The translations under genes were made by a program, and so were the position numbers. Below, piece by piece: positions 14,241 to 52,905 of a stretch of 64,000 nucleotides of DNA; within the stretch, counting starts at the first letter, position 1; every line of letters begins with the position of its first letter. Under the pieces are notes generated by a model. The model was not told the DNA's origin and made no database searches. It saw nothing but the letters and a program-made list of their open reading frames with translations. Origin of the DNA: Camelus ferus (Eukaryota); contig NC_045696.1 of the NCBI RefSeq assembly GCF_009834535.1, forward strand, positions 48,610,001-48,674,000, read 5' to 3'.

Positions 14241-16946
14241 CCTGGTTATCAAACTTCACTCTCAGTGCATTGTAGGGAATGTGAATGATCACCATTAGGC
14301 TCAAGAAAGGATGTAAATATAAATGTTGAAGCTGCAAAAATAATATGTTTCAGAGCATGAAAGACATAGAGTTGAATTTATGTTTGACAAGGTATAAGAA
14401 AAATCTGGCTAAGGACTTAGATTTTCATTCTTCTCTCCTGCTACAATTACATTTTATATTAAAATAGTTCTGTATTAACATTTTATATAAAAGTTTAAAA
14501 ATTTTTTGAGTTATCAATTGTCTTCTCAGGATTTTGCTCTGTTTCATTATATTTTATCTCAATTTTATTGAATACAGATGAAATAAAATGACAGTTAATT
14601 ATTATAAACATGAAACTGTTAAGTGTCTATGAAGCAATCTCTTTCTATTATCTTCATTATAATGGAAGTAAGGAAAAATATTCATGTGTAACCTGAGTAT
14701 AAGCCAATGATAATGAAGGCTTATTATATTATCTTATTATAGTAGAGTCGACAAACTAAAAATATGCTTACAATCCTCATTTATAACACTTTAATTTTGC
14801 TTTGGTTCCATCTATTTTGTCTCGTGGTATAGAAAAGACTTAATTTTATCCCAAATCTAAGAAAAAAATTTCAGATCATTTCTTGTGATTGGAAAAGACC
14901 AGTGGCTTGAATATCTTATTTGGCTTGTTAAATAGCAAAACTTTCAAAATTAAATCAGATGTCTCACATCTGAATAAATATTTGTGATTTTACTTTATAA
15001 ACACAATAATTCTTAAAAATTGTGACTCTGCATAGGTTATAATAAGATGCAAAAATCTATGAAACTATTTTGGAAGGTTAAAATATAACATTATTGAAAT
15101 AAAATGACATTTTCCCCAGATTAAGACATTTTCTAATATTGTTTTAATTGACTTTGACATTGAATTCTGCCAATGAAATCTTGTATTAGAGAATTTTCTT
15201 TCTTTCAAATTTATTATAAACTTTTTGTATGTATGTATGCCAAGCATACACATACACACATTTATATGTATTTTTTTCCTTTAGAGGAAAAAATATATAT
15301 ATCTCCAAGGAATATTTGCCTAGTGTTGATCTGTAAATAAATTGACAATAGAATAGTGAAAATGTTAAGAAATCTGTAACGAGGGTTTGAACAGCTGTTC
15401 TATAGCTGCTCAAGGCAAATAACGCTTGTGTTAGTATCTGAAAGGTCAGATGGAGCAAAGGAGGAATGTTCAGAATTCTGATGTTAGAATTTGTCAGGAC
15501 AAAAGGGAAGTTCCAGATTTTTACAATGAGACTGATTCTGGAACTCTATTAACTCTGTTGATATGCTTAAGGTAGAGTAGTTTTTCTTCTTTTCAAAGTA
15601 TTTTTAGCTTTTTTTTTTTTTAACCAAAAAAAGCCAAATAAAACAAAAATGTTAACACTGGGGTTAAAAACAAGAACACAGGCCTCCACTACAATCACAT
15701 AAGAGAGGCATTATGAGAGTAGGTGTTCAGTGACCTGGATTTAGCTAAATTGGGTTCAGTCAATGACTCACTGTTGAGAAAGGTTGACCTATTCAATTTT
15801 AAAAATAGTACTTTTTGAATAAGCCAATCCAGGGTGAAGTTGACCAGATAGCATACTTAATGGCACAGCTTTCATTTAAGTATTTTTTTCCTATGACTTG
15901 CCCAATTATTGAAAATAGCAGCAAATGGGTCTAAATTTCACTTATCCACCCTCCTTTATCCACAACTCCTCTAATATTTTCTGTGCTTATTCAGTTGGCA
16001 GCAGGACTGTGTGTGTCTGTCTGGCTGCACGAGGAGAGCGGATTGGTTGTTGCATTCATCAACTTGGTTTCCTCAGGGATTTCCAGTGTGTAAGCCACCA
16101 AAACCCCTGTCACCTCATGGTCATGTGTTGGAGTGACAGCCAGAATAGCTGGTTTGTATTAACTACAACAAAGGATATTTTCTAGAACCTGCCTGGTGGC
16201 CTTTCAGTTGTATTACTGACTGGACTTTATAATGTTTTTTTCTCGCGCAGAAAGCACAATTTCTCACCATCCCAGACCGCTGTACATTGAAACAGACTGA
16301 CCTGCTGGCATCTGTAGCGGAGCCAAATGCATCCATGCTTTACATCAACGGTTTCACCACACTTAATTCTAACCCAGCTGCTTTTCATTGCTTTTGCTCT
16401 GAGTTCACACCTACTTGGCTTCTTGCTTCTTCTCTTTTAGGAGAGATTGATCTTCCTCCTCTTCTAACCCAATGTTTAGCATTTTAACACCTGCCCCCTT
16501 GATGCTTTCATTCCTTGTACATCTCTGCCTCTCAGTTTATTAATCTATTCCCTGAAACATTTCTTTTCCCTTTATTGTGTGTGTGCTCTTCAAATTCGTT
16601 ATGTCATACCCAGAGCTATAAAGATAGACTCGAACTTTTCCCCCAGAGAATATTCTGGAAATGGGTGTGTCCTTGCTCCTTTAGTGGGACCCACAGCCTA
16701 CTAGACTACATACCCAGGCCTATTTCTCACTGATCTTTTCATCTTTCCTACCTCAGGCTAATAAGGAACTTCTGCCTATGAGATTATCTAAATCTGCAAA
16801 ATTGAGCTCCTCTTTCATCTGCAAGTATCTAGAATCATTCAACAAAAATCAAATTGCTAATCATGGAATATTCATTAGCAACTTCCACACAGTCAGGCAT
16901 CCTTCAGTCTCATATGTAGACACATATACAATCATACTAATCATGC

Positions 16947-17025
16947 TTTTTTTTTTTTGAAGCTCTAGTTGGCTTTATTCAACAATCATGAATCAGGCAG
17001 CATCCCATCTAGCAAGTAGAAAGAT
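16947..17025 (-). mobile_element. Short polyadenylated retrocopy resembling an ERV LTR 3' (R) segment
   Basis: Minus strand reads ...GATGGGATGCTGCCTGATTCATGATTGTTG AATAAA GCCAACTAGAGCTTC followed by A13. Confidence 0.45.
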
Positions 17026-17369
17026 ACTTGCCTAATTGTGGTCTTTTCATTCATTGTTTCCATCAGTTCATTCATAAAAACCCATACCAAACAAACCCTT
17101 TTAGTTACTATTACTTTTTGACCAATTCTATCATGCTAGACCTTTTGCTAAGTGCTTTATAAAAATAATCAGATTTAATTTCCTCAAGAGCCCTACCAGG
17201 TGGACTGTAATAGTAGTAGCAGTGGTAGTAGCAATAATACTTCTTGTTTACAGATATGAAAACTGAAACTAAAGTGATTATGTATCTTGTCCAAAATGAT
17301 ACCATCAGTAAGGAGACACGCCAAGCCTCCCCTCAAGAATGTGTAATTCTACACCATTAACCAATAATA

Positions 17370-17959
17370 TATGTGACCTAAACTTTGGTAAGCTCTATTC
17401 TCAAAGTGTAAAAAGCTGTCTGGGATTTTAAGAATGAACATCAGCTAAGAGCGAAAATGGAAAAGGCAGCTCTGCCATTAATCAGGGTGGGTAGGAGGTT
17501 GGATACAGACAAAGACAGTCTCCATATTAACAGAACACATCATTTCCCCGAGGCCTCCCCGTAAAATGCCATAACTAACCTCTCTTTGTGTAACTTCTGT
17601 TTGCTTACCAGTGATGCTCCCAGAAGTTCTTTGTTTATTTCGTCTATTACTGAGGACATCTAATTGCTGAAATGCTGTCACCTCATGACCGCACCCAATT
17701 CCTAGTAAATCCTCATTCTCTCAATCCTGCCTAAAACCAGCAACTAATCCAGAGTTAATGCCCTCTTTCCTTAGACACTCTTCAGAATTATTCAGCAGTA
17801 ACCAAAACCTTTCAAAAGATGCTTCCCTGTTTCCTCTTGTCATGTGGCATTTCATAGCTCCTCTGGAGTGCCCTTTTTAGCTGCAGCAAGTCAACACATC
17901 CAATTCTGTCAGATTTCAAATTTGTGCCTGGTGGTCTTTGGCTGATTAAGCCTTTAACA
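17370..17959 (+). mobile_element. ERV-L class solo LTR (MER54/MER73-like)
   Basis: 3' end GCAAGTCAACACATCC...CCTGGTGGTCTTTGGCTGATT...ACA; internal CCAATTCCTAGTAAATCC and CAACTAATCCAGAG. Confidence 0.55.
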
Positions 17960-18332
17960 ATGCATAGTGAATTAATACACTTAAGCAATTCCTAGAGGAA
18001 GAAAAATAGCCATTAAATATTAGAGAGAATGCTTAGTGACTCATAATAAAAATACAAATTAAAATAATATGCCCCTTTATCAATTTTGTAAAGATACTTA
18101 GAATTTTAAAGATTCTGCATTGTCAAGATAATACAGGCACATAGTGCAAGTGCAAGGTAGTAAGGGAGGGGAGGACTGGATGCTGTCACACAGGCAGGTG
18201 CAGTTGTATGTTGCTTCAGATTTTCTGGAAGGAAATTGGGGCTTCATTTATAGTCTAGTTTTTAATAGGCTATTGGGAAAAATGACGAAGCTACAGAAAA
18301 AATTTACTAGGCTATCCATGGCAGCACTTTTG

Positions 18333-18811
18333 GTAAATCTGCATAAAAAGAAAAAAACTATTTCAAAAATTAATTGCAGATTTGGTGGGGAGAAAGAGCT
18401 GATAGGATTGTGGGAAAGTTTTGGTCTCATAATTTTCTATATTTTTCATGTATGAAATAATGAAATTATGTATATATTATAATGAGAATAAAAGCATTTA
18501 TCATAAACTGAGAGTGGCAGGCCTCCAAATTAAATACATTACAAATTATTTACCATGACAAATTATGCATGAGATATGAACATAAATAAATTCATTTAAA
18601 TAAACTTTATTGAATGGCAGTCAGGTGCTAGCATAAGAGAAATAGTAATTATAGGCACATGACTGTATTTATTCATATCCAGTGAGTGATATGGGCTCAT
18701 GGACCCAATTCAGTGAAAAGAACATAGAAATATTATCTGTCTATGATCTATTATTTTATGACTATACACTCCAGTTGATACCAGTACTTTCAAATACTCA
18801 GAAATGAGATA
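18333..18811 (+). repeat. Left arm of a ~480 bp inverted duplication
   Basis: Reverse complement of 20018-20491; manual alignment gives about 15 substitutions and 5 gapped nt, with a perfect core at 18538-18664. Confidence 0.97.
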
Positions 18812-19360
18812 CATGTTACAAGTTCTCAGTACTGTTACGTACAGTGGTTGAGTAAGCAGTCACTAGGGGGTTGTAGCTAAATGACAGTCTGAAATTCTAC
18901 ATCTTCAGTTGCCAGGGTCACCGTCAGGCCATCCACACCTGCCGTCTTTCTTTGTGAAGGGGTAACTCAATAAGGATGTTTTCACGGGAAATTGAAGAGA
19001 GTTGCCCATATTTAACCAAAGCTACTTCAGTTTTTCTTTGTTCTCATAAGCAAATGAGGACAGGGAGAAACAGAGAGCTTCAGCTACATTTTATCAACAT
19101 CTACTGATAACTTGGGTCCAAGCAGTCTGCCCTCCCATGTGGAAGTGGAGGTGTGGGTAGAGGGAGTAAAATGGAGGATGTGTTCCAGAAATGTATATTT
19201 TGTAGCATGTTTAACCAGTTTCTTTGTTCATCTGAGGTCTTAAATCAAGTGCATGCAAAAGAATATATTTGCTCTAATCTATGGATTAGCTTTGGGTTAA
19301 AAGGTCTGACCTTAACTAACCTTTGCCTCTTACACCATTCTTCTTCCTTCTTTTCCACAG

Positions 19361-19430
19361 AAAAAAAAATGCAGTCTGATGTTTTGAAGATATCAGATTT
19401 GTGGGTGAAGAGATCAGATCTGTAATACAG
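19361..19430 (+). other. Candidate internal exon (70 nt, stops in all three frames, so non-coding or UTR)
   Basis: Branch point AACTAAC (19314-19320), ~37-nt polypyrimidine tract, acceptor TTTTCCACAG|, donor CAG|GTATGG. Confidence 0.6.
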
Positions 19431-19753
19431 GTATGGCTAATTATAGCTTATAACAAGCCAGTAAGAAGCAGTGAAAATATTGGCTACTGACATTTTGTTT
19501 TGCCTGAAACAATGACTTAATGTTTGCGGATTTCAGATTCATTGCACTTCATAGTCATATTTTGCTTTACTAAGGAATATGTGTGCATAAAACATATGAA
19601 AAAAGGAATATGGCACCTATTATTCTGCCTCCCAAGGCTTTAAGAGCATTTTTTTTAAACACCTCCTTGTTATTTCTTAAATTATGTTATTCAAATGATA
19701 GGAGATAAGATAATAGAGATAAAAGAGCCATGGAAAATATCATATATCTAAGC

Positions 19754-19820
19754 CTTTTTTTAAAATTGTTTTTTGGGAGGTAAGTAATTGGATTTACTTG
19801 TTTATTTATTTATTTATTTA
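19754..19820 (-). mobile_element. 3' tail of a camelid tRNA-derived SINE
   Basis: Minus strand (AAAT)n...CAATTACTTACCTCCC-A-rich matches the tail of the copy at 52789-52905. Confidence 0.6.
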
Positions 19821-20017
19821 TACCTTTTCTATATATACCCATATATATAAATCCAAAAATTTTAATGAAATTTTTATCCCCTGTATGTATTGTTTAAGAA
19901 ATGATCTTTTTAATTTAACAGCATATTGTGTCACCAAATATTAATTTACAAAACCCTTTTTGTTGGCATAGAATTCTGTTTTCTACATGTAACATCAATT
20001 ATTTAACTAAATGTATA

Positions 20018-20491
20018 TATCTCATTTCTGAGTATTTAAAAGTACTGGTATCAATTGGAATGTATAGTTATAAAATAATAGATAACAGATAATATTTTTA
20101 TGTTCTTTTCACTGAATTGGGTCCATGAGCCCATATCACTCATGGGATATGAATAAATATAGTCATGTGCCTATAATTACTATTTCTCTTATGCTAGCAC
20201 CTGACTGCCATTCAATAAAGTTTATTTAAATGAATTTATTTATGTTCATATCTCATGCATAATTTGTCATGGTAAATAATTTGTAATATATTTAATTTGG
20301 AGGCCTGCTACTCTCAGTTTATGATAAATGCTTTTATTCTCATTATAATATATACATAATTTTATTTTCTCATACATGAAAAATATAGAAAATTATGAGA
20401 CCAAAACTTTCCCACAATCCTATCAGCTCCTTCTCCCCACCAAATCTGCAATTAATTTTTGAAATAGCTTTTTCTTTTTATGCAGATTTAC
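20018..20491 (-). repeat. Right arm of a ~480 bp inverted duplication
   Basis: Reverse complement of 18333-18811 at about 96% identity. Confidence 0.97.
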
Positions 20492-22379
20492 TCTAGTTAA
20501 GATCAGTGTGGATGTATGTATGTATCCTTAACATATTTGTTATCCTAAATTTCATTACAACATTATAAGATAATTCTACTTAGTACCCAAAAGTCTCTTA
20601 ATAAAAGTCATTATGATTCATATGTACAGACTTAGTTGATATGTGAATATCTAGAGACAGTAACAAATTCTATTTAATTGTTATAACTACCCATTCCTTT
20701 TCCCCTAGAAGAGCTTCTAACAGCCCTTGGACCTCAAATCTTTTATAAAATGTGTATAAAATACGTATTCAGGTCTGTCCCATGATATGGCCATGACTAA
20801 TGATTATCTATCTACATTAATGGTTTCCTTTTTCTCACTGTACCTTCACTGATGCCTGAATGGAAGGAGCTCATAACTATAGCTCCCTTTCCTTTTTCCC
20901 CCTTGAAATCTGAAATTAAAGTGGTCCCTTTTCGTTTGACAATAGTAATTGTATATTTCACAAATGTCATAGTACAATTACAAAGTTAAACTCAAAAATA
21001 TTCTATTTCTTTAACATGCAAACCTTTATATAATTCAGTTTCTATTTTGAAAATGTCACAAAACATATACGTATGGGAAAATGACACAATTTCTCCCTCC
21101 GCTGAAACTCAGCAATTCATATCGGTACAGTCTAGACTAGCATGGCAGGAACTGATGACATGAATATGACTCTAGTAGTTTTTCTAACAACTCAACGTGA
21201 TTGCTAAATCTTCAGGTTTTGTCTTGCTGATGGTGAGGAAGCCAAATACTCCACAGTGCTGATCTCTCATCTGAGGGTAAAAATGTAGAAGCAAAAATAC
21301 TATATTATATTTTAAATAAAAGTTCATTCATTGTATGTGTGACAGGTTCCCTTGACCTTGAGGAACTCACTGTCAAGTGGGCGGGTCAGATATGCCAAGA
21401 AATAACTATCACACAGCATTGTCATGTAAAAGAGTTATTCAAAGGGTGTAATGGAAGCGATTATAAACTCCTTCTCTTATGACTAGTAATCTCAGATGAT
21501 TTATAAGACAGAAGAAAGACTTACAGTGATTTGAAGGCCTGTCTGTTAATTTCTGAGATCACTGGTCAGTCTTTAGGCAACGGTTTTTTTGTTTTTTGGT
21601 TTTTAGTTTTTTCTCTGTTTTGACCCACTGGCTGTCCCTTCAGCTAACCTTACAGGACTGTTGGAGGAAAAGTAGAATCTAAAGAGGAGACAGGGGATCA
21701 GAAAAAAAAAAAAAAGCACACATTTTCTAAACCATTCTCTCTTCAGAAGAGACAGTTATTTGGACATTTCAACAGGATATAGCAAAATCTATACACTAAC
21801 GTTTGTTTTGTCATCTGAGAAGCATTTCTGTTCAGTCCTGTTTGCTGCTAAAAATTCATTCAGAAAGCAAAAATGTAAGCCAATATTTCTTGGGTAATGT
21901 TGTGTTTGCAGTGAAAATGCAGTATGCATACAATTTTTATCCCCCAAAAAAGTCATTATGATTTTTCAACCTATAATGAAGGGAGACTTTACTCTTTAGA
22001 GATGAGAGTAAACAACAGATTGAACAAGGGAGAAAGAAAGAAAGAAATGTAAATCATAGTCCTTTGGGAGAAAAGATATTAAGAATCACAGTTGTTTTTC
22101 TTTTCATTCTATGACAGTTCAAGCATATCCTACCAGAGATTAAAGACTTATCCTGACAATATATGCAGAAGGAGAAAATGAAGCAAAGAATTGAGAGACA
22201 TAGATCTGAATTATATTATCAGGTCTATTAAGGATTTTTACTTACTAAACTAGCTTCTAAGGTTCTAATGTTCCTACTGAGTTTTTTTATTTACATGGAA
22301 AAGTTTTCATATAATAAATCTTCATATAGAAGAAATACAGAAGAATAATAGAGAAGAAATAAACATATAAAAATAATAA

Positions 22380-32626: not shown

Positions 32627-32800
32627 AGATAAACAAGATTATACTGTATAGCACAGAGAAATATATACAAGATCTTATGGTAGCTCACAGCAAAAAAAAA
32701 AGTGGCAATGAATATATGTATGTTCATGTATAACTGAAAAATTGTGCTCTACACTGGAATTTGACACAACATGGTAAAATGACTATAACTCAATAGCAAA
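32627..32800 (+). mobile_element. Young camelid L1, 5'-truncated 3' end
   Basis: Near-identical to the copies at 34412 and 51212; 15-bp TSD AAAAAAGAACAAACA (32612-32626 and 32801-32815). Confidence 0.9.
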
Positions 32801-33941
32801 AAAAAAGAACAAACAGAAAATTAGTATAAAATAAAGATGTTCTGCTTAGCCATTTAGATCACAAAGGTTTTTTTGATGACTGATTTAAAGCATGATTTAA
32901 ATAGAGTCTAGCTTGCATGATTTGAGAATTAATGGGAAACAAGAATCCAGATATTAACTTTACAGATAACTGTCTTTGAACAAGGTTAGCTCAGAAGGTG
33001 ATGAGCATCTTTTACTTTTATCATGTGTACATACAAATGAAATAATAGTTTTTCAAAAAAATTGTTTCTGAACCTTTGTTCTTTTCACCCATACAAGATC
33101 ATCACACTTGTCACCGTTCGGAGCTTTTGGAGAGGTGAGCATGGGAAAATATGCAGGTAAATCCTACTGTGTCATTTTAAGGAGCTGCAACACTAAAGAA
33201 CCTTGATTTGAGTCACTTTTCTTTCTGTAAATAGGATTGCCTGATAGACTATTTTATGACTCTTCTATAGGGAGACACTTTTCCACTAATCTTACAGATG
33301 CAGCGTGGACCACAAGATGCTACTTTTGTTTAATGATTTTCCGGCTTTAAGGACTTTGTAGTTGTGTACAGCAAGTTTTGAACTGGAAAGCTGCCAAACT
33401 GACTCTAATTTAAGCTTTGATATCACAAATGAATCTCTTCATAAGTCATGAATCATCCTGTAAAAATATCGGTGCGTCTAAAAGCCATACTAAAGCAATT
33501 TCAGGTCCAAAAGGATCACTATGCTATGTTGAACAAAAGGTTTAATCAGTCAGTGGATCAAAGCCAGCTTTGGTTATCTTCAGATAAACTCAGCAACATT
33601 TTTTTTTTATGTGCATCAGACTTCATTCATCCACAGAATAAATTTTTTTATCATTGGTGTACATATGCTCCCATTTATTAAGAGGTTTTTGTGACCAATA
33701 ATTCTACCTTTTATATAGTGTCACTCATGCAAAGACCTATCATAAACTCAAGTCAAACCTTCCCCATCTATGCTGCAAGGAACAGTGTATTTAACTGGTG
33801 GTGCCAATGTACACCAAGTCAGGATCTTTTTTTTCTAAGCAACAGTGAAACACTTCTATTCAAGTAAATTAATACTCTTAATTGATTTGTTTGGTAAGAG
33901 GCATAAGAAGAATCATAGATTAATTTTAAAACTTTATCAGC

Positions 33942-34700
33942 TGTAATAATTACTTCTGAGGGTTTTACCATTCCCAAACTTAGTGGCCTAAAACAACCAC
34001 CAGTTATTTGCTCACGATACTGTGGACTGGCAACACAGGCAGGGCTCAGCTGGCCCAGTTCATCTCTGCTCCTCATGGTGTCTGCTGGACTCATTCATGC
34101 TGTTGTGGTCAGTTGGCAGGTCAGCTGGTTGGGCCTGGATGGCTTCACAGGCATTGCTGGCAACTGGCTGGGGCTGTCGGCCAGGGCATGTCAGTTCCTC
34201 CCATGTGGTGTCTCCAGCAGGCAGCCTCGGGCTTTCTTATGCAGTATCTGATTTCTAAGAGGACAAGAACAGAAGCTGGACATCCTCTTAGGTTACCCTA
34301 CCAATCTGTTAGTCAAAGCAAGTCACAAGGCCAGGTCATATTAAAAGGAAGGGAAATAGATTCCACCTCTTCATGGGAGGAATGGCAAAGTCATATTGAA
34401 AAGAAGCATAGGCACAGACTGGGAGTTTGAAATTTGTAGAAACTGACAGGCATATGTAGAACAGATAAACAAGAGTATACTGTATAGCACAGGAAAATAT
34501 ATGTAAGATCTTGTGTTAGCTCACAGTGGAAAAGTATGCAACACTGAATATAAGTATGTTCACGCATAACTGAAAAGTTGTGCTCTACACTGGAAATTGA
34601 CACAACATTGTAAATTGACTATAACTCAATTAAAAAAAAAGAAGCATAGAATAGAGATGAGAGAAATTGTTGTGGCCATCTTTGCAACCCATCTATCACA
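33942..34700 (-). mobile_element. MLT1 (H-like) MaLR LTR interrupted by a young L1
   Basis: CCCAAACTTAGTGGCCTAAAACAACCACCAGTTATTTGCTCACGA...AAAGCAAGTCACAAGGCCAG...; resumes after the L1 with GTGGCCATCTTTGCAACCCATCTATCACA. Confidence 0.8.
34412..34636 (+). mobile_element. Young camelid L1, 5'-truncated 3' end
   Basis: AGATAAACAAGAGTATACTGTATAGCACAGG...TGTGCTCTACACTGGAAATTGACACAAC; 13-bp TSD AAAAGAAGCATAG (34399-34411 and 34637-34649). Confidence 0.9.
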
Positions 34701-36055: not shown

Positions 36056-38399
36056 GCATATTATTCAAACTAAGTTGTGAACACAGGAATTAGTCACCTC
36101 CAGGAAACAGTTTGCTATTTCATATCAAAAGCCTTAAATATGTACTCGTCAACACAACAGCTGTACTGCTAGGAATAGCCCAAGAAAATAACTATGGATA
36201 TGCACAAAGATTTTGCTACGTTTATAATCATTGCAATATTAAGAAAATGAAAGGAAAAACCCTACAAATTTAACAAGTGATGTATTAATATAGGTTATTG
36301 AAGAAACAGTATTAAAATGTAGATTTGCCTATTAGAGTAGTTACATTATTTAGAATATTGGATTAGTTGTTCTCTCGTGGAGAACCAAACAACATGGACA
36401 ACATAGAAAGAATTTTACCATGCATTATTGAGTGAAAAAAAAGTTGGGCATGATATAAATGTGGTTTCATTTTATATAATCTTATATATAAATGTATATA
36501 ATCTTACTGACAAAATTAAATCTTAATATTATCTCTCTTAAATGGTCACATTCTTTGTTCCTAGGAATATGGGATACTTTTATAAGAAATAGAATGTTTT
36601 TAACCCTTACTCTTTTAACGATAGAAAGTAAATACATTAAAAGCAGATGACTACAAAACACAGAGTTCTAATATCCTATCAATCTCACATTGTATACAGC
36701 AGTCCTTTATCTTGGCTATACTTTGAATTCAGCACAGTATTGATGACTAGGGAATAGCACACTCCTCGTGTTCCTCTGAATCTTTTTTGGTTGGACTGTG
36801 CTGCATGCAATAAAAGAAGGAATATGCTTTTGGCTGCTGCAGTCTCTTTAACTGCAGCAGATCTGAGAATGTAATCCATCCATTTGGAAATTCAGAATCC
36901 GAATAAATTGGCTCAGGGATGCTCACTCCTTTCCTGGGGTATCTTATCTCCTTTAGCATAGGCGCCATGATGGATTTGCCGTATTTTTGAAAAGGCAACA
37001 AAGAGTTAAAATATAATTGGCTTGCAGTTGGGCAACAGCACATCCGCTTGCCCCCTAGATTTAATTTAAATGGGAAAATATTTCTGAGCAAGGACTGCAT
37101 AAAGCAGCAAGTTGAGAGAGTTGCCAGGAATGGATAAAAAAAAAATCTTCTTGTTAAAGAAAATCTGGTGAGAATTATAGCAGCGACTTTTCTGGCTCAG
37201 TTTTTTTAATGTACATAATGACAGAACCCCACAATACCCATTTATTTGACCAACAGATTTCATTAAAGGGCAGGAAATGCAATCTCCTGATAGATTTATT
37301 TCTTTACCAATTGCTTAATTATGATAACTTCATCATGGTAACAAAATGGATTATGTTTGTTTTCCCTGCACTCACCAGGGCCTAACTGGTAAATAGTCTG
37401 TCAACATTTCCAGTTCAACCCTAATGTTTCAAGGGGATGTGACTTGACTAAAATTAAGCTGCTGGCATCCACTTGTTCAGTCCCAAATTATTTTTACGTT
37501 GTTTAAGTCAAATAGTTGTGCAGCAATTTAACCTTTCTTAAGGAAAGAAGGACACATTTGGCCTTTGCACCTACCAATAGGTTTATTTTTAATTCCTCAA
37601 ATTTTCTTGGAAACTCCAGTTAGTATTTTTAAATGTCTATGGATTTGTAATTGAGAGCCTATTTTGCATGGTACCCGGTGGCCAGTAGGATCCTCAGTGT
37701 AGATTTCACCTGTCCCTGCTGAAAGTGGAAGAGCAGGCTCAGGCTCATACTTGAATGGCTCTCTCCCTTGGAATAAGTTATGGTTGTGCATTTTTCAGCA
37801 AAATTTAACTGGAAGAAATCTTGCTTTGCTTTTGTGTGCTCTAAGATAACTGATTTGACTTTCCCCTGCTAAGATAACTCAGCATCATCTTGTACATACG
37901 GTCTGAGAAAGCACTCAAATGTCAATCAGGATGGAAGAACCAACAGCTGGAAACTATCCCAGCGTCTCTCAAAATAGCACAAGCTAGTGGGTAGAACAGA
38001 CACACTGAGGGCTAATAATGGTAACAGTAAGCAAAAGGATGTTTTTATTAAGTCTGGGAATGTACCTACCTTGACAATAAAATATTTGTAGAATGAATCC
38101 AGGTGATTATAGAGGTTTTTGCTTTGAGAACTGCAAAACTTGTGAGAAATGATATGCACTGACTAATACTTTTTATTGAAATTTAATAAATCAATATGCT
38201 TACGTAAGAAATTTTCAAATGACTTAGAGATGTAGTTTACTTTTTTCTTTCTTCTTTTCATATGTGTTGTTAAAATGTGGTCCTCCTTTTAGTCTACACT
38301 TCAGTCTAAATTCTTTCTCTATTTGACAACTCTGTACATTTGTGTGCTGGATAAATTTCCCAATGAAAATACTGAGCTATTCTAGAAACTGCACAGTCA

Positions 38400-45939: not shown

Positions 45940-48900
45940 TATTCATAATATTATAGTCCTCATTTCTATGACTAATTACATAGTCATAGGCTATACTTAA
46001 CAACTACATTCTCCCAGTATCCATTACATATTCCCTTTGCCCTCAGCAAGCATCTCGGCTGGTTATGGATTCTTCGCCTGTTGGGCTGACCTAGACCTTT
46101 ATTCCTGAAGAGCCTGGATCATTAGCAGTCCTGCTTGAATTGGGTTGTTGTAGTTTCCAACTAACTTTAATCACAGGATGCGGTTATACTAAAGGACACC
46201 CTAAGGGTTCGGCTGTGAATCAGACGTATTCTTCCTTATCACCTTTTGTAGTAAGAGCCCAGCTTTCCCTTGGTATTCAGGATCAATTATCCCAGCAAGT
46301 ACATGAACTCCCTTCTTTGCCTGTTGATTCAGAGACATGAAGAGCTCAAAATGGATGGGTGGCAGTCTTAATTACCAGTTCAATGGAATCACCGTGTCTC
46401 CTGGCGGAAGCATCCCTCCCTTTGAAACTAAGACCTCTAGACCAGCAGAGCATAAGGCTGTGGGGAAAAGAAGCACAAATGTTGCTTGTGGATCAGTAGG
46501 GGAATAGTGAGTGGTCCCACTTCCATTACACTTCTTGACTCCTGATCCTGTGAGTCCTGTCTGTGGCAGAAACACTATCATACATTAGCCACAGATTTAG
46601 AGTAAACCTGAAAGATATCACCACCTGATGGCACTGAAAATGAGTCTTCAAAAGGCCATACCAACATTTTACCATCTTCATACCATCATCAGGCCAGCTG
46701 CTTCAGGATGTTGGAAATGTTGTAAGATCAGTGAATTTTCATGGGCCCATTGCTACACTTCATTTGCTATGAAATGAGATCCTTGATCAGAAGCAATGCT
46801 GTGTGGGTTACCTGATGCTGATGTTGGATAAGGCATTATGTGTAAGTGCACAGATAACAGTTTGGCAGAAGCATTGCATTTGGGGAAAGGAAATTTGTAT
46901 CCAGAACAAGTGTCTCTTCCAGTAAGAAGAAACTGGTGCCCTTTCCTTGATGGAAGAGGCTCAGTGTAATCCACTTGCCCCCAACTGGGTGGCTGGATCA
47001 TTCCAGGAACCACTGCCACATCAGGGACTCAGTGTTGAGTCCCTGCTCAACTCAGTGTTGGTCTCTGCTGAGCATTCAACAGCAGCCATTGGTCGGCCTT
47101 GGTGAATGGAAGCCTGCTGTTGCTGAGCTCGTACAGAATCTCCATCCCTGGCACTTTATTAATGAACCCACTGGGTGATGACAGGAGTGGCTGGGGAAAG
47201 AGCCCCACTCATATCCACAGAATGAGCCATCCTATCCACTTGATTATTAAAGTTTGTCTCTGCTTAGTGAATTCAGATAGGACGAAATATCTTCACTTTT
47301 TTTTTTGCCCATTCAGGGAGGTCTATTTGCATGAGTCACCACAGACCTCCTTGTCACCAATTTTCCAATTATATTCCTTTTAAACCCCTTACTATCAAGC
47401 CAAATCATTGACAACAGCTTACTGAGCGCTATGGACATGCACTTCTCAACATTTGCCTTTCCAAACAAAATGAACAACAAGGTACACTGCTCCAAGTCCT
47501 GTCCACTGAGAGAATTTCACCTCACCTCTGTCCTCTAGGGATGTCCCAGGAAGGAGATGCAATGCTGCAGCTGTACACTTTCAGGTGGTGCTTGCATGTT
47601 GTATATAACCATCTGTAAACCAGGTCCAAGAATTCTCTTCCTCAGTTGACTGGTAGTAGGTAACCTCTCTTGGAGCCATAGACGTGGGCTGGGACAGAAA
47701 GGTACATAGCAGAAGTAGGTGTCATGGCATTTGGGCCACTTTCTCATGTTACTTAGCCTTCAGTCCCTGCTCAAGATTAAGACTCTTGACTATAGCCTCT
47801 TCCATTTAATAATACAGTAGTGCTACACACACCTAACTAAACATAAAACACCTAACTTTATGTTTAGTGTATCAGACAATACTCAGTTTATGATGGGAAG
47901 TTCAAGTCACATGGTAATTTGGCGGTCCATGGTTAAGCGGTCAGTCTCTAATAAGGCCCACTAGCAAACAAAAAGCTGTTTCTCAAAAGGAGAATCATTA
48001 TCCACCAAGGATGGTAAGGCTTCTGTCCAAAGTCCAAGGATCTGAGCTGCGACTCGTCTACAGAAACCTGCCAAAGGCCTTATGGCATCTCTATATGCCA
48101 GTGACACTTCAAGAACCATCAGATCTATTGGATCCTTTGAACAAGTGATAGAGTGGCTTGCATGGCATCCTGGACCATTGCTGATCCTTCTCTTCTTCTG
48201 AGCCCCACTCAAAGCTGGCAACTTTTGGGGTCACTTGGTAACCACTAACACCCAGTAGAACACCCACATGAGGAATAGGTTGCTGCCAAAATCCAAAGAA
48301 GTCCACCTGACATTAAGCTTTGTCTTTTGTTGTACAAGGAGCTAAATATAACAACATATCCTTCATGCTAGAAGAAATGTTTCAACAAACCCCGTTCAGC
48401 CATACCCCCTAGACATTTCACTGAAGTGGAAGATCCTAAAGCTTCTGTTGGATTTATCTCCCACCCCTGACACACAAATGACTTGCTAATATGCTACAGT
48501 AGTTACTACTTCTGCTCACTAGATTCAGTTAGCGTAACAATGTAATGGATGATTAGGTTGTTTTGTCAAAGGGAAAAATGATCAAGTTCTCTGGAAATTA
48601 AACTCTGACAGGATAGGCAGTTAATTTATTCTTCAGTGAAGGTATATTGCTGGTCTTACCAGCTGATAGCAAACTTCTCTGGTGGTCATTAGTAAAAAGT
48701 ATTTTCCAGATCAGTAGCTGCATGCCAGGTACCAGGAGGTGTTTTAATTTGCTCCAGCAATGAAATCATATCTGAAATAGCAACTGTAATTAAGCGTCAT
48801 CATTAGGTTAAGTTTGTAATAATCCACTGCAATTCTCCAAGATTCTTTTTTTTTCCATACAGATCAAATAGATGTTGTGGGAATCACCCCCTTGGATATT

Positions 48901-51108
48901 TCAAGCCCTTGATGGTGGCACTTATCTTTGCAGTCCAATCAGGAATGCGGTATTGCTTTTGGTTTAATATTTTTTCCAAGTACAGGCAGTTCTACTGGCT
49001 TCCACTTGACCTTTTCTATCATAAAAGCCCTTATTTCAAAAGTCAGGGAAGCCACGTGGGGATTCTGTCAGATGCTAAGTATGTCTATTCCAATGATCTA
49101 TTCTGGAACCTGGGAAATAAACATAGAACAAGTTCAGAGACCTGCTGGACCCACTGAGAAACTGATCTAAGCTGAAATGCCAGTGATCATCTAATCTCTG
49201 TAAGCCCCTACTCTGACTAGTGGACCACAGTGACATTTTGGGTCTCATGAAATTAGAGTTAGTTCAAAGGCAATGTCCAGTAATCCATGGAAGTTCTGAT
49301 TATTCTCCTTCCTCCTGAACTGTCAGCCTGATAAAAGGCCAGAGGTCCCTTTGGTGAAAGCTAAAAGAAAGATTAACACTGTAATTTTTGGCAGTGAAGC
49401 AAGTTCCTTCAAGGGAACCCTGCCTCTTCTTCATTAAAGGGATTCTGAGTCTGTAAATTGTCTCAAGTCTAGGAATGAATTGAGCGTCAGTGACTTTGGT
49501 TTTATGATTTAGATTAGACTTCTGTTCACTTGACCTAGAACTCTTCTGCTGATACATATAAGAATTTGGTGGACTGAACATCTAGTTGACTTCTAAGTAA
49601 TCCCTGATTAACTAGCCAATGCCATAGGTCTCTGTGAGTCAGACTAATCTGATCCCTGCTTTGACTCTGCTGTCCATTGTAGTAACCAGTTCACCTGGTC
49701 TTTGTTGATTAAGTGCTGCATCTTGGTCTCTGTCATCTGAAATCCAATTATTTGCATCACATTTAAATTTTCCAGTTCAGTGATAGCAGTTCTCACTGTG
49801 ATTTCTCCAGAGAAGAACAAACACAGAGCACTTCCTGGATCCTGGGGCTTCTCCCACGAATGCGTTCCTCACAGTGTGGTAAAGGTAAGTTCTCTGGACT
49901 CTTCTAGGTAAATAAGCACGGCTTACATGATGAACCCTCTTTAACATCACAGTCTCCTTAAACCTTTGGGTACCTCAGGATACCAAGACAGTCCTGGCAC
50001 TTGAATTTCATTTAATGTAGACTAGCTCTGGGTCCATGTTTCACCCACCAAACAAACTATTAGGACTTTCTGCAACCCCTCAAGCTGCAGCATCAAATCT
50101 AGAATCTCCACTAAGTGGGTGTAGATCAATAAATTTGGTTTGATCCAACTTTATATCTCTTCCACTATTATCTCACATCCTTAATATCCATTCCCAAACA
50201 TATTTCCTAGATTTCTGTTTATATAAATTAAAAAACAAACAAGCAAAAAACTCATGCAGTTCTTTGGGAAGGTAATGTATCTGCTCGTGAGTCTCAACTT
50301 GTACCTCATCTTTAGGAGCATTCTGGGACTTGAGTAGTTATGGGTATAGAAACAAAGAAGGGTGGTGGGAGTGGGTCCAGATGAGAGTCAGTAGTATCTG
50401 GCAAAGCAGCTTCCTCGGGGAGGCCATTAAAGTTTCCTCAGGCAAAGCAGTGTTAATCTCCCCAGGCAGGGGTGGGAGGGCAGCTTCTCTTGGCTTGGAA
50501 GACTCAGTAGAATTTAAGAGTTCAAGATCCACTGCTTCATCAGGATATGCCCAGTTGTCTCCCTTCCAGTTCTAAGGAAGCCATTTCTTCACAATCAATA
50601 TCCTCACTTTAATAGCAGGTACCCTATGAGGTCGGGAATTCAATTTGTTTTATAATTCAGCCAATCACTTGATGAGGCTCTAGACTCAGTTTTCAGCAAT
50701 GTCAGTGCTGAGGTTATGGGAGATAAGGGTTTCTCACAGGACATGCATAACAACCTTCAGGTCATTTATGTGAAATGGAAATCTGAAACTCTGAGCTCAG
50801 CATTTTCTTTTTCCAGTGCAGTTAGGAGCTACTAACCAATCTTATGATACTTCTAAGTTTGATTAAAATGCTCTAAAGTATCTAATAGATGATCACTCAT
50901 AACTCTGCCTTTTACAGGTATTTGATTAGAAGTAGCCAGTGGTGATATTGTCAGCTCTATTGCCACATCATGGCATGGACTGCCAGTTCCCGCTTGACCA
51001 CTGAGAAAGTGCCTTTAAATCTAAATCTAATTGAATTAGAGAAAACCACTTCCAGAAAACTTATCCTTAAGACTCTGTTCCTCAGAAACCATTCTCAATA
51101 CCAAAATT
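45940..51108 (-). mobile_element. ERV-L (MLT2-int/HERV-L-like) internal region: decayed gag, pol (RT/RNase H/integrase) and dUTPase, no env
   Basis: Integrase remnant WGQVDYTEPLP...LLTGRDTCSGY...PHSIASDQGSHF (46753-47019); dUTPase LCSAGLEVLVSKGGMLPPGDTVIPLNW (46372-46581); pol remnant DPIDLMVLEVS...SPFEKQL (47961-48221); gag remnant (50338-50532); PBS-like TTTTGGTATTGAGAATGG next to the LTR; many stops and frameshifts. Confidence 0.92.
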
Positions 51109-51200
51109 TTTATCAATCAGGGTTCTACAGAGAAGAAACAGACCCAGTAGAAGGACATATTTATATCTATAGCTACAGCTATGTCTACTTCATCTATATA
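51109..51200 (-). mobile_element. 3' end of the 5' MLT2 LTR of the ERV-L provirus
   Basis: ATCAATCAGGGTTCTACAGAGAAGAAACAGACCCAGTAG is the MLT2 terminus (reverse complement) abutting the PBS. Confidence 0.8.
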
Positions 51201-51211
51201 AAGAAAGATCA

Positions 51212-51687
51212 AAACCAACAACATAACACCATTTGCAGCAACATGGATGCTCCTGGAGAATGTCATTCTAAGTGAAGTAAGCCAGAAAGAGAAAGAAAAA
51301 TACCATATGAGATCGCTTATATGTGGAATCTAAAAAGAAAAACAAAAACAAACAAACAAACAAAGCATAAATACAGAACAGAAATAGACTCATAGACATA
51401 GAATACAGACTTGTGGTTGTCAAGGGGGCTGGGGGGTGGGAAGAGACAGACTGGGATTTCAAAATTGTAGAATAGATAAACAAGTTTATACTGTATAGTA
51501 CAGGGAAATATATACAAGATCTTACGGTAGCTCACAGAGAAAGGAATGTGACAATGAATATATATATGTTCATGTATAATTGAAAAATTGTGCTCTACAC
51601 TGGAATTTGACACAACATTGTAAAATGATTATAAATCAATAAAAAAAGTTTAAAAAAAAACAAATAAATGCTTAGAAAGAAAAAAAA
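51212..51687 (+). mobile_element. Young camelid L1 (ORF2 end plus 3'UTR), 5'-truncated
   Basis: CCATTTGCAGCAACATGGATG...AAGTGAAGTAAGCCAG...A-tail; TSD AAA(G/C)AAAGATCA (51200-51211 and 51688-51699). Confidence 0.92.
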
Positions 51688-52788: not shown

Positions 52789-52905
52789 GGGGAGGGTATA
52801 GTTCAGTGGTAGAGGGCATGCAAGAGGTCCTGGGTTCAATCCCCAGTACCTCCATTAAATAAATAAATAAAACTTAATTACTTCTCCCCACTCCACCCCC
52901 CCCCC
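52789..52905 (+). mobile_element. Camelid tRNA-derived SINE (Vic-1 type), inserted in an L2 tail
   Basis: GGGGAGGGTATAGTTCAGTGGTAGAG (A box)...GGGTTCAATCCCCAGTACCTCC (B box), (AAAT)n-TAATTAC-C-rich tail; 12-bp TSD AAATGTTTCTTG (52775-52786 and 52906-52917). Confidence 0.92.

Follow-up and report, generated by a model that had tools for sequence, protein, structure and literature searches.

Among the closest described systems to the locus analysed here is the four-point template switch (Loytynoja and Goldman 2017, PMC5453318), and in particular its event class 1-3-4-2/3-1-2-4; type 1-3-4-2 together with its mirror made up 23% of the 794 human-chimp template-switch events reported there. The same product is left by staggered-break inversions with inverted duplications (Ranz et al. 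2007, PMC1885836; also PMC7584159). Such duplications accompany 17 of the 29 Drosophila inversions in the former report, with a median length of 321 bp. Human inverted duplications, according to the 1000 Genomes description of the 'Inverted Dup' class (Sudmant et al. 2015, PMC4617611), are nearly all shorter than 1 kb, lie within 5 kb of the other copy and have no link to retrotransposition. More broadly, LIRBase (PMC8728187) records 4,590,178 long inverted repeats in 208 vertebrate genomes, which by our own division is about 22,000 per genome. Its definition requires both arms to exceed 400 nt and to match at 80% or more of positions, with no more than 10% indels and a loop of at most 100 kb. 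The siRNA pathway cited for LIRBase is that of plants and flies, and the word 'camel' is absent from the main text of that paper.

We describe here an inverted repeat in a 64,000-nucleotide stretch of the Camelus ferus genome (hereafter the window), and we conclude that it is an ordinary small rearrangement of a known class. Its arms of about 480 bp lie 1.2 kb apart and lack a target-site duplication, as in the 'Inverted Dup' class of PMC4617611. However, that class consists of an inserted inverted copy, whereas at the camel locus the DNA between the copies likely underwent inversion as well, in an event that dates back millions of years. The inversions of Ranz et al. (PMC1885836) are chromosome-scale and come from Drosophila, whereas this one spans 1.7 kb in a mammal. 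The template-switch events of PMC5453318 are described as short clusters, whereas the copied fragment here would be about 1.7 kb, which means that the scale is extrapolated; the ancestral state, taken from a genome alignment in that work, is read here from one translated fragment.

BLASTN self-comparison of the window paired a left arm at 18333..18814 (plus strand, 482 bp) with a right arm at 20015..20491 (minus strand, 477 bp) over 482 columns, with 95.4% identity and 766 bits. This was by far the top non-trivial self match in the 64 kb, the runner-up being a direct repeat of 240 bits. Exact alignment of the arms gave 461 matches, 16 substitutions (14 transitions and 2 transversions) and 5 gapped bases across 3 events, and contained a perfect core of 127 bp at 18538..18664 on the plus strand (partner 20161-20287). 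The reverse complementarity of the arms, the 5 gapped nucleotides and the core at 18538-18664 had all been reported in the original prediction and were recovered in our alignments; its tally of 15 substitutions, 13 of them transitions, is reproduced exactly with the shorter ends that it used (18811 and 20018). If the four TA bases at 20015-20018 are counted as an insertion, the right arm extends over 20011-20491 instead. The arms have a GC content of 27-29% and no CpG, and enclose a spacer of 1200 bp (18815..20014) of old, unique-looking DNA. With this loop and these arms the pair falls within the LIRBase definition. Many LIRBase repeats are transposon pairs, whereas this locus is not. Every other inverted pair among the 25 of 27 repeat pairs listed for the window was 40 nt or shorter, and the arm pair is the sole long inverted repeat among those listed.

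Several searches addressed the nature of the arms. No target-site duplication was found beside either arm, the longest shared words being 6 and 4 nt and lying away from the junctions, and no further copy of the arms was found in the 64-kb window. Rfam returned nothing at gathering scores at the locus (best E 2.1 under a permissive search), and no Pfam family scored above its cut-off in 23 of the window's 26 frames of at least 100 amino acids, the other three being those at 51317, 57564 and 58687. The best score in the scanned frames was 15 bits for DUF2730, below its cut-off of 24.9. Old L1-like 3' fragments at other places in the window show weak similarity to the outer arm sequence (z 2.3-3.3), which fits the earlier description of the arms as unique or decayed L1 sequence; the absence of a target-site duplication and of a transposase, also claimed there, agrees with the searches above. 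A DNA transposon or MITE with terminal inverted repeats was considered as the source and rejected, given the lack of a flanking duplication, of an extra in-window copy and of a Pfam transposase in the frames scanned; the spacer, which is old collinear DNA in other genomes, also speaks against it. The locus is a single-locus inverted duplication, neither a SINE pair nor a transposon.

Several features of the surroundings were noted as well. No coding gene was found in the 64-kb window, which by human coordinates would be gene-poor DNA upstream of NECTIN3, and a limited literature search yielded nothing on this locus among the 8 of 693 matches listed. The CpG-richest part of the window, at 2151-2600, has an observed/expected ratio of up to 0.6 and 58% GC; with a strong plus-strand donor at 2490 it is a candidate promoter and first exon, probably of a non-coding transcript. 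Part of the spacer, 19565-19770 on the plus strand, is weakly similar to 36880-37090 on the minus strand, 17 kb away (nhmmer E 0.007), and the two possibly descend from one very ancient repeat; no Pfam match was obtained for the 149-codon frame at 36747-37196. By eye, a minus-strand AT-rich run at 19775-19825 looks like a SINE tail similar to that of the element at 52792-52890; the run contains a strong plus-strand donor (rank 4 of 3379) at 19779. The head of the latter SINE, at 52792-52854, is tRNA-like (Rfam RF00005, 32 bits), and the element resembles the camelid Vic-1 SINE. One dispersed element has copies at 32627-32813, 34455-34643, 51284-51664 and 164-341 that are 74-88% alike and resemble 3' ends of a younger L1 family. 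By eye, the region 45940-51140 has the look of an old minus-strand LTR retroelement whose interior has decayed; none of the long open frames scanned there had a Pfam match. A bacterial promoter scan of the window is not meaningful for a mammal.

An inverted repeat of this kind could be produced by a fold-back read during assembly, and we compared the words of positions 15500-21500 with sequencing runs. A share of 0.94-0.96 of these words was present in 17 of the 24 runs listed (7 studies, 2 organism labels), although one of these 17 may be the assembly's own source. Three rows with word shares of 0.10-0.33 and one raw RNA run play no part in this comparison, and no RNA holder was among those listed. 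The words unique to one arm amount to 5.8-5.9% of the total, against the 4-6% that were missing from the runs, and the probability that one absent arm alone fits the best runs is about 0.08. Since the one-arm-only words make up less than 6% of the total, the word shares by themselves do not prove that both arms exist, which leaves some room for an artefact. On the other hand, the 16 substitutions between the arms, 14 of them transitions, and the 3 indel events follow the pattern of evolution and not that of read error, and the orthologue discussed below suggests a structured rearrangement. An artefact is therefore very unlikely, as the original prediction had argued from the divergence of the arms.

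The ancestral order of the locus was read through spurious ORF calls of other genomes, which serve as translated views of orthologous DNA. Five such ORF-call proteins, in two clusters, align collinearly to 19117-19640 of the spacer with about 17% divergence, and the spacer is thus old DNA common to other mammals. A further ORF call, P0006, was the sole match among 1.84 billion representatives for the frame that crosses the left outer junction (18132-18452; 62% identity over query residues 2-70). By tblastn it anchors the left flank, at 18040..18329 on the plus strand, first over 18040-18111 and then from 18105 onward (E 2e-25), and its fitted divergence from this flank is 0.16. Beyond the flank, the last three codons of P0006 and its stop match exactly the minus strand starting at the junction base 20014, that is, the end of the spacer read in reverse; exact matches to these codons and the stop occur at 2 of 127,976 window positions. 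A stretch of 33 nt separates the last aligned flank codon (ending at 18329) from the start of this spacer-end match.

A codon-level likelihood taken over all gap lengths, chosen after the match had been seen and with indel and gap-length priors of our own, gave a continuation of P0006 into the reversed spacer end an lnLR of +3.8. For continuation into the spacer start the value was -0.9, into the right flank -0.2, and into the left arm -7.5 with the stop or -5.9 without it. None of 3000 random partner positions scored as high as the observed continuation. The terminal stop of P0006 is deduced from the end of the protein, and when it was dropped the lnLR was +1.6, a value matched by 12 of 3000 random positions. 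Taken together, the sequence comparison suggests that the spacer is probably flipped relative to the ancestor, on the evidence of one ORF call (a single-member cluster) and four codons. The original prediction had treated the spacer as untouched DNA that might invert at some later time, whereas P0006 suggests that an inversion has already taken place since the ancestor; because of this the repeat is likely the scar of an inversion.

A plain inverted duplication, in which a copy of one arm entered in reverse orientation 1.2 kb from its source and the spacer was never flipped, would account for the match between P0006 and the spacer end by chance or by a rearrangement in that other species. This is the commonest human form, seen at 54% of 229 sequenced inversion sites in PMC4617611, and two of our own results allow it: a plain count of mismatches over the last five codons and stop of P0006 is a tie, with 3 each for the reversed spacer end and the left arm, and tblastn carries P0006, with a gap, into the left arm, up to 18365. 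Against it, the exact match begins on the junction base itself, the random comparisons gave 0 of 3000 (12 of 3000 without the stop), and the spacer-start and left-arm continuations of P0006 score at or below random. We therefore regard a plain duplication as unlikely.

Other searches bearing on the junctions were less specific. Protein searches with the junction-spanning queries 19919-20089 and 18251-18436 returned no candidate, exact look-ups of window ORFs in the protein collection found 0 of 10 present, and metagenome scans gave 158 pattern matches of which 0 were confirmed, with 0 matches to the arm motif. Old L1-like fragments align weakly across each outer junction and also across the right inner one; for one of these alignments, over the left outer junction, none of 150 shuffles scored higher. 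By eye, the left flank and the spacer end might be consecutive pieces of one old L1. The L1-like fragments in the window do not single out the native arm, either pairwise or as a nine-fragment profile (best E 0.12). That the left arm is the native copy is disfavoured by the lnLR of -7.5. By exclusion, the right arm would be at its original site, and the left arm would be the new copy, moved along with the inverted segment.

These observations are consistent with an ancestor in which some 30 bases separated the left flank from the reversed spacer, with the right arm and then the right flank following. In the model that we prefer, a polymerase would have come off its template where the left flank ends and copied 1.7 kb in reverse, beginning at the distal end of the arm and running on through the spacer. 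Re-entry at the start of the arm through a 4-base microhomology would have let it copy the arm a second time, giving an event of type 1-3-4-2 in the four-point template-switch model. The first putative new junction, between left flank and arm, would lie at 18330..18338 (plus strand), where about 30 ancestral bases were likely lost. The codons at 18333-18338 score -0.3 and +2.5 as native sequence and are thus possibly native, a weak hint that they represent microhomology at this junction. The second putative junction, at 20011..20018 (plus strand), would comprise a 4-nt microhomology, in which 20011-20014 pairs with 18811-18814, followed by the four extra TA bases. An 8-nt word shared near this junction was matched by 107 of 3000 composition-matched random pairs. 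If the junctions are assigned from the flip, the locus has two new junctions with little or short identity and no target-site duplication, as expected of the 1-3-4-2 class. Staggered breaks followed by end-joining would yield an identical product, and template switching and breakage cannot be told apart at this locus. On balance, we lean slightly towards a single replication or repair accident that made the inverted duplication and likely flipped the 1.2-kb spacer, with likely functionless decay since. The neutrality of the repeat is deduced from one genome.

We infer that a two-step history would leave identical junctions and an identical orthologue signature: the left junction would first have received an inverted arm copy, and recombination of one arm with the other would later have flipped the spacer, possibly repeatedly. 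This amounts to the recurrent inversion raised in the original prediction, shifted into the past. Sequence divergence lowers recombination between repeats, and the 3.4% divergence of the arms should have reduced it here; moreover, two events are needed where one suffices. The 127-bp perfect core would fit a conversion tract and is borderline long: placing 19 differences at random gives a run of that length about 5% of the time (P about 0.05), which is not enough to indicate gene conversion. Minimal homology for recombination is given as 50-250 bp (PMC8755829), which would be compatible with a crossover. We consider this two-step history rather improbable. A further feature of the arms is an asymmetry of their transitions: between 18357 and 18812, 11 of 14 have G/C in the left arm and A/T in the right (P 0.057), which may be chance or biased conversion. 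Both the asymmetry and the core are borderline, and neither is counted as evidence.

The divergence of the arms can be used to date the rearrangement. The K2P divergence is 0.035 (Poisson range of the raw distance 0.019-0.054), which at a mutation rate of 7e-9 per generation and a generation time of 5 years (PMC7331169) would place the event at about 12 million years, with a range of 7-20. Gene conversion between the arms would make age estimates of this kind too low. An alternative, faster mutation rate of 2.2e-9 per year gives about 8 million years (range 4-12). For comparison, the split between Old and New World camelids is put at about 16.3 million years and that between dromedary and Bactrian camel at 4.4-8 million years (PMC12337305).

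We also examined what the repeat could do as RNA. In the minimum-energy fold of the plus strand, the right arm pairs with 464 of the left arm's 482 bases to give a predicted stem of 0.46 kb, and the arm duplex is predicted at about -739 kcal/mol on either strand. The 14 transitions among the 16 substitutions yield 7 G-U pairs on each strand, and this even division gives no sign of selection on an RNA stem. Hence the double-stranded stem proposed in the original prediction is upheld as a predicted fold, whereas the role proposed for it as a substrate of ADAR, Dicer or a dsRNA sensor gains no support from the G-U pairs. Within the spacer, splice-motif scores point to a cryptic exon candidate of 70 nt at 19361..19430 (plus strand); scored with splice matrices, its acceptor is placed 5th of 4393 on that strand and its donor 15th of 3379. 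An inverted Alu pair reportedly causes exon skipping by loop-out in TBXT. The arrangement here is like that of inverted Alu pairs (PMC13019027, PMC13019944), in that the arms lie 0.55-0.6 kb to each side of an exon-like stretch, and the arms exceed an Alu pair in length and in mutual similarity. Unlike the Alu loop-out, however, the camel repeat is a private duplication and not a retroelement pair, and its exon is a candidate and not conserved. Measured against the expressed, structurally stable inverted duplicates of PMC5398296, the predicted stem lies well within the stem definition (at least 21 bp, below -15 kcal/mol), whereas the 1200-nt spacer exceeds the 1000-nt limit for hairpin candidates.

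It is conceivable that the repeat is used as RNA, with a transcript from the candidate promoter folding the arms into a stem that would undergo ADAR editing or loop out the 70-nt exon. The predicted duplex and its pairing are in keeping with such a use, the exon candidate ranks fourth of 1524 on the plus strand, and the top CpG-rich 300-nt windows, at 2151-2600, adjoin the strong donor at 2490. By analogy, inverted Alu pairs have been linked to both skipping and editing (PMC13019027, PMC13019944, PMC526178), and editing of inverted-repeat stems declines with distance (PMC526178). Against this use, the candidate has stops in all three frames, and the amino acids of both orthologue clusters suggest that the acceptor AG and the +5 G of the donor differ there, although a lysine codon close by could provide a different AG. 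For these reasons the 70-nt candidate is not a conserved exon, and it would at most be a camel-only one. An equally good exon candidate was found in 3 of 53 window bins of 1.2 kb, G-U bias is absent on both strands, and the spacer is longer than the hairpin limit given above. Overall, a use of the repeat as RNA is quite unlikely.

A stronger version of this idea would be a splicing switch of the camel lineage, built in one step by the same accident. The flip of the spacer would have set the cryptic 70-nt exon in the direction of a transcript from about 2250-2490, and two later base changes would have produced the acceptor AG and a stronger donor. The duplicated arms would then bracket the exon, the 0.46-kb stem would loop it out, and recombination between the arms could toggle the exon on or off at the DNA level. 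We regard such a switch as very improbable; if true, it would be a non-transposon counterpart of the Alu-type loop-out, created together with its target exon.

As the probable scar of a single replication or repair accident, the locus adds one small inversion with a duplicated end to a class already described in primates and flies. It would matter more if camel RNA splices or skips the 70-nt exon, or if both orientations of the spacer occur in living animals. As it stands, it is a tidy kilobase-scale case of an inverted repeat with an inverted spacer, and it could be a lineage marker for camelids.
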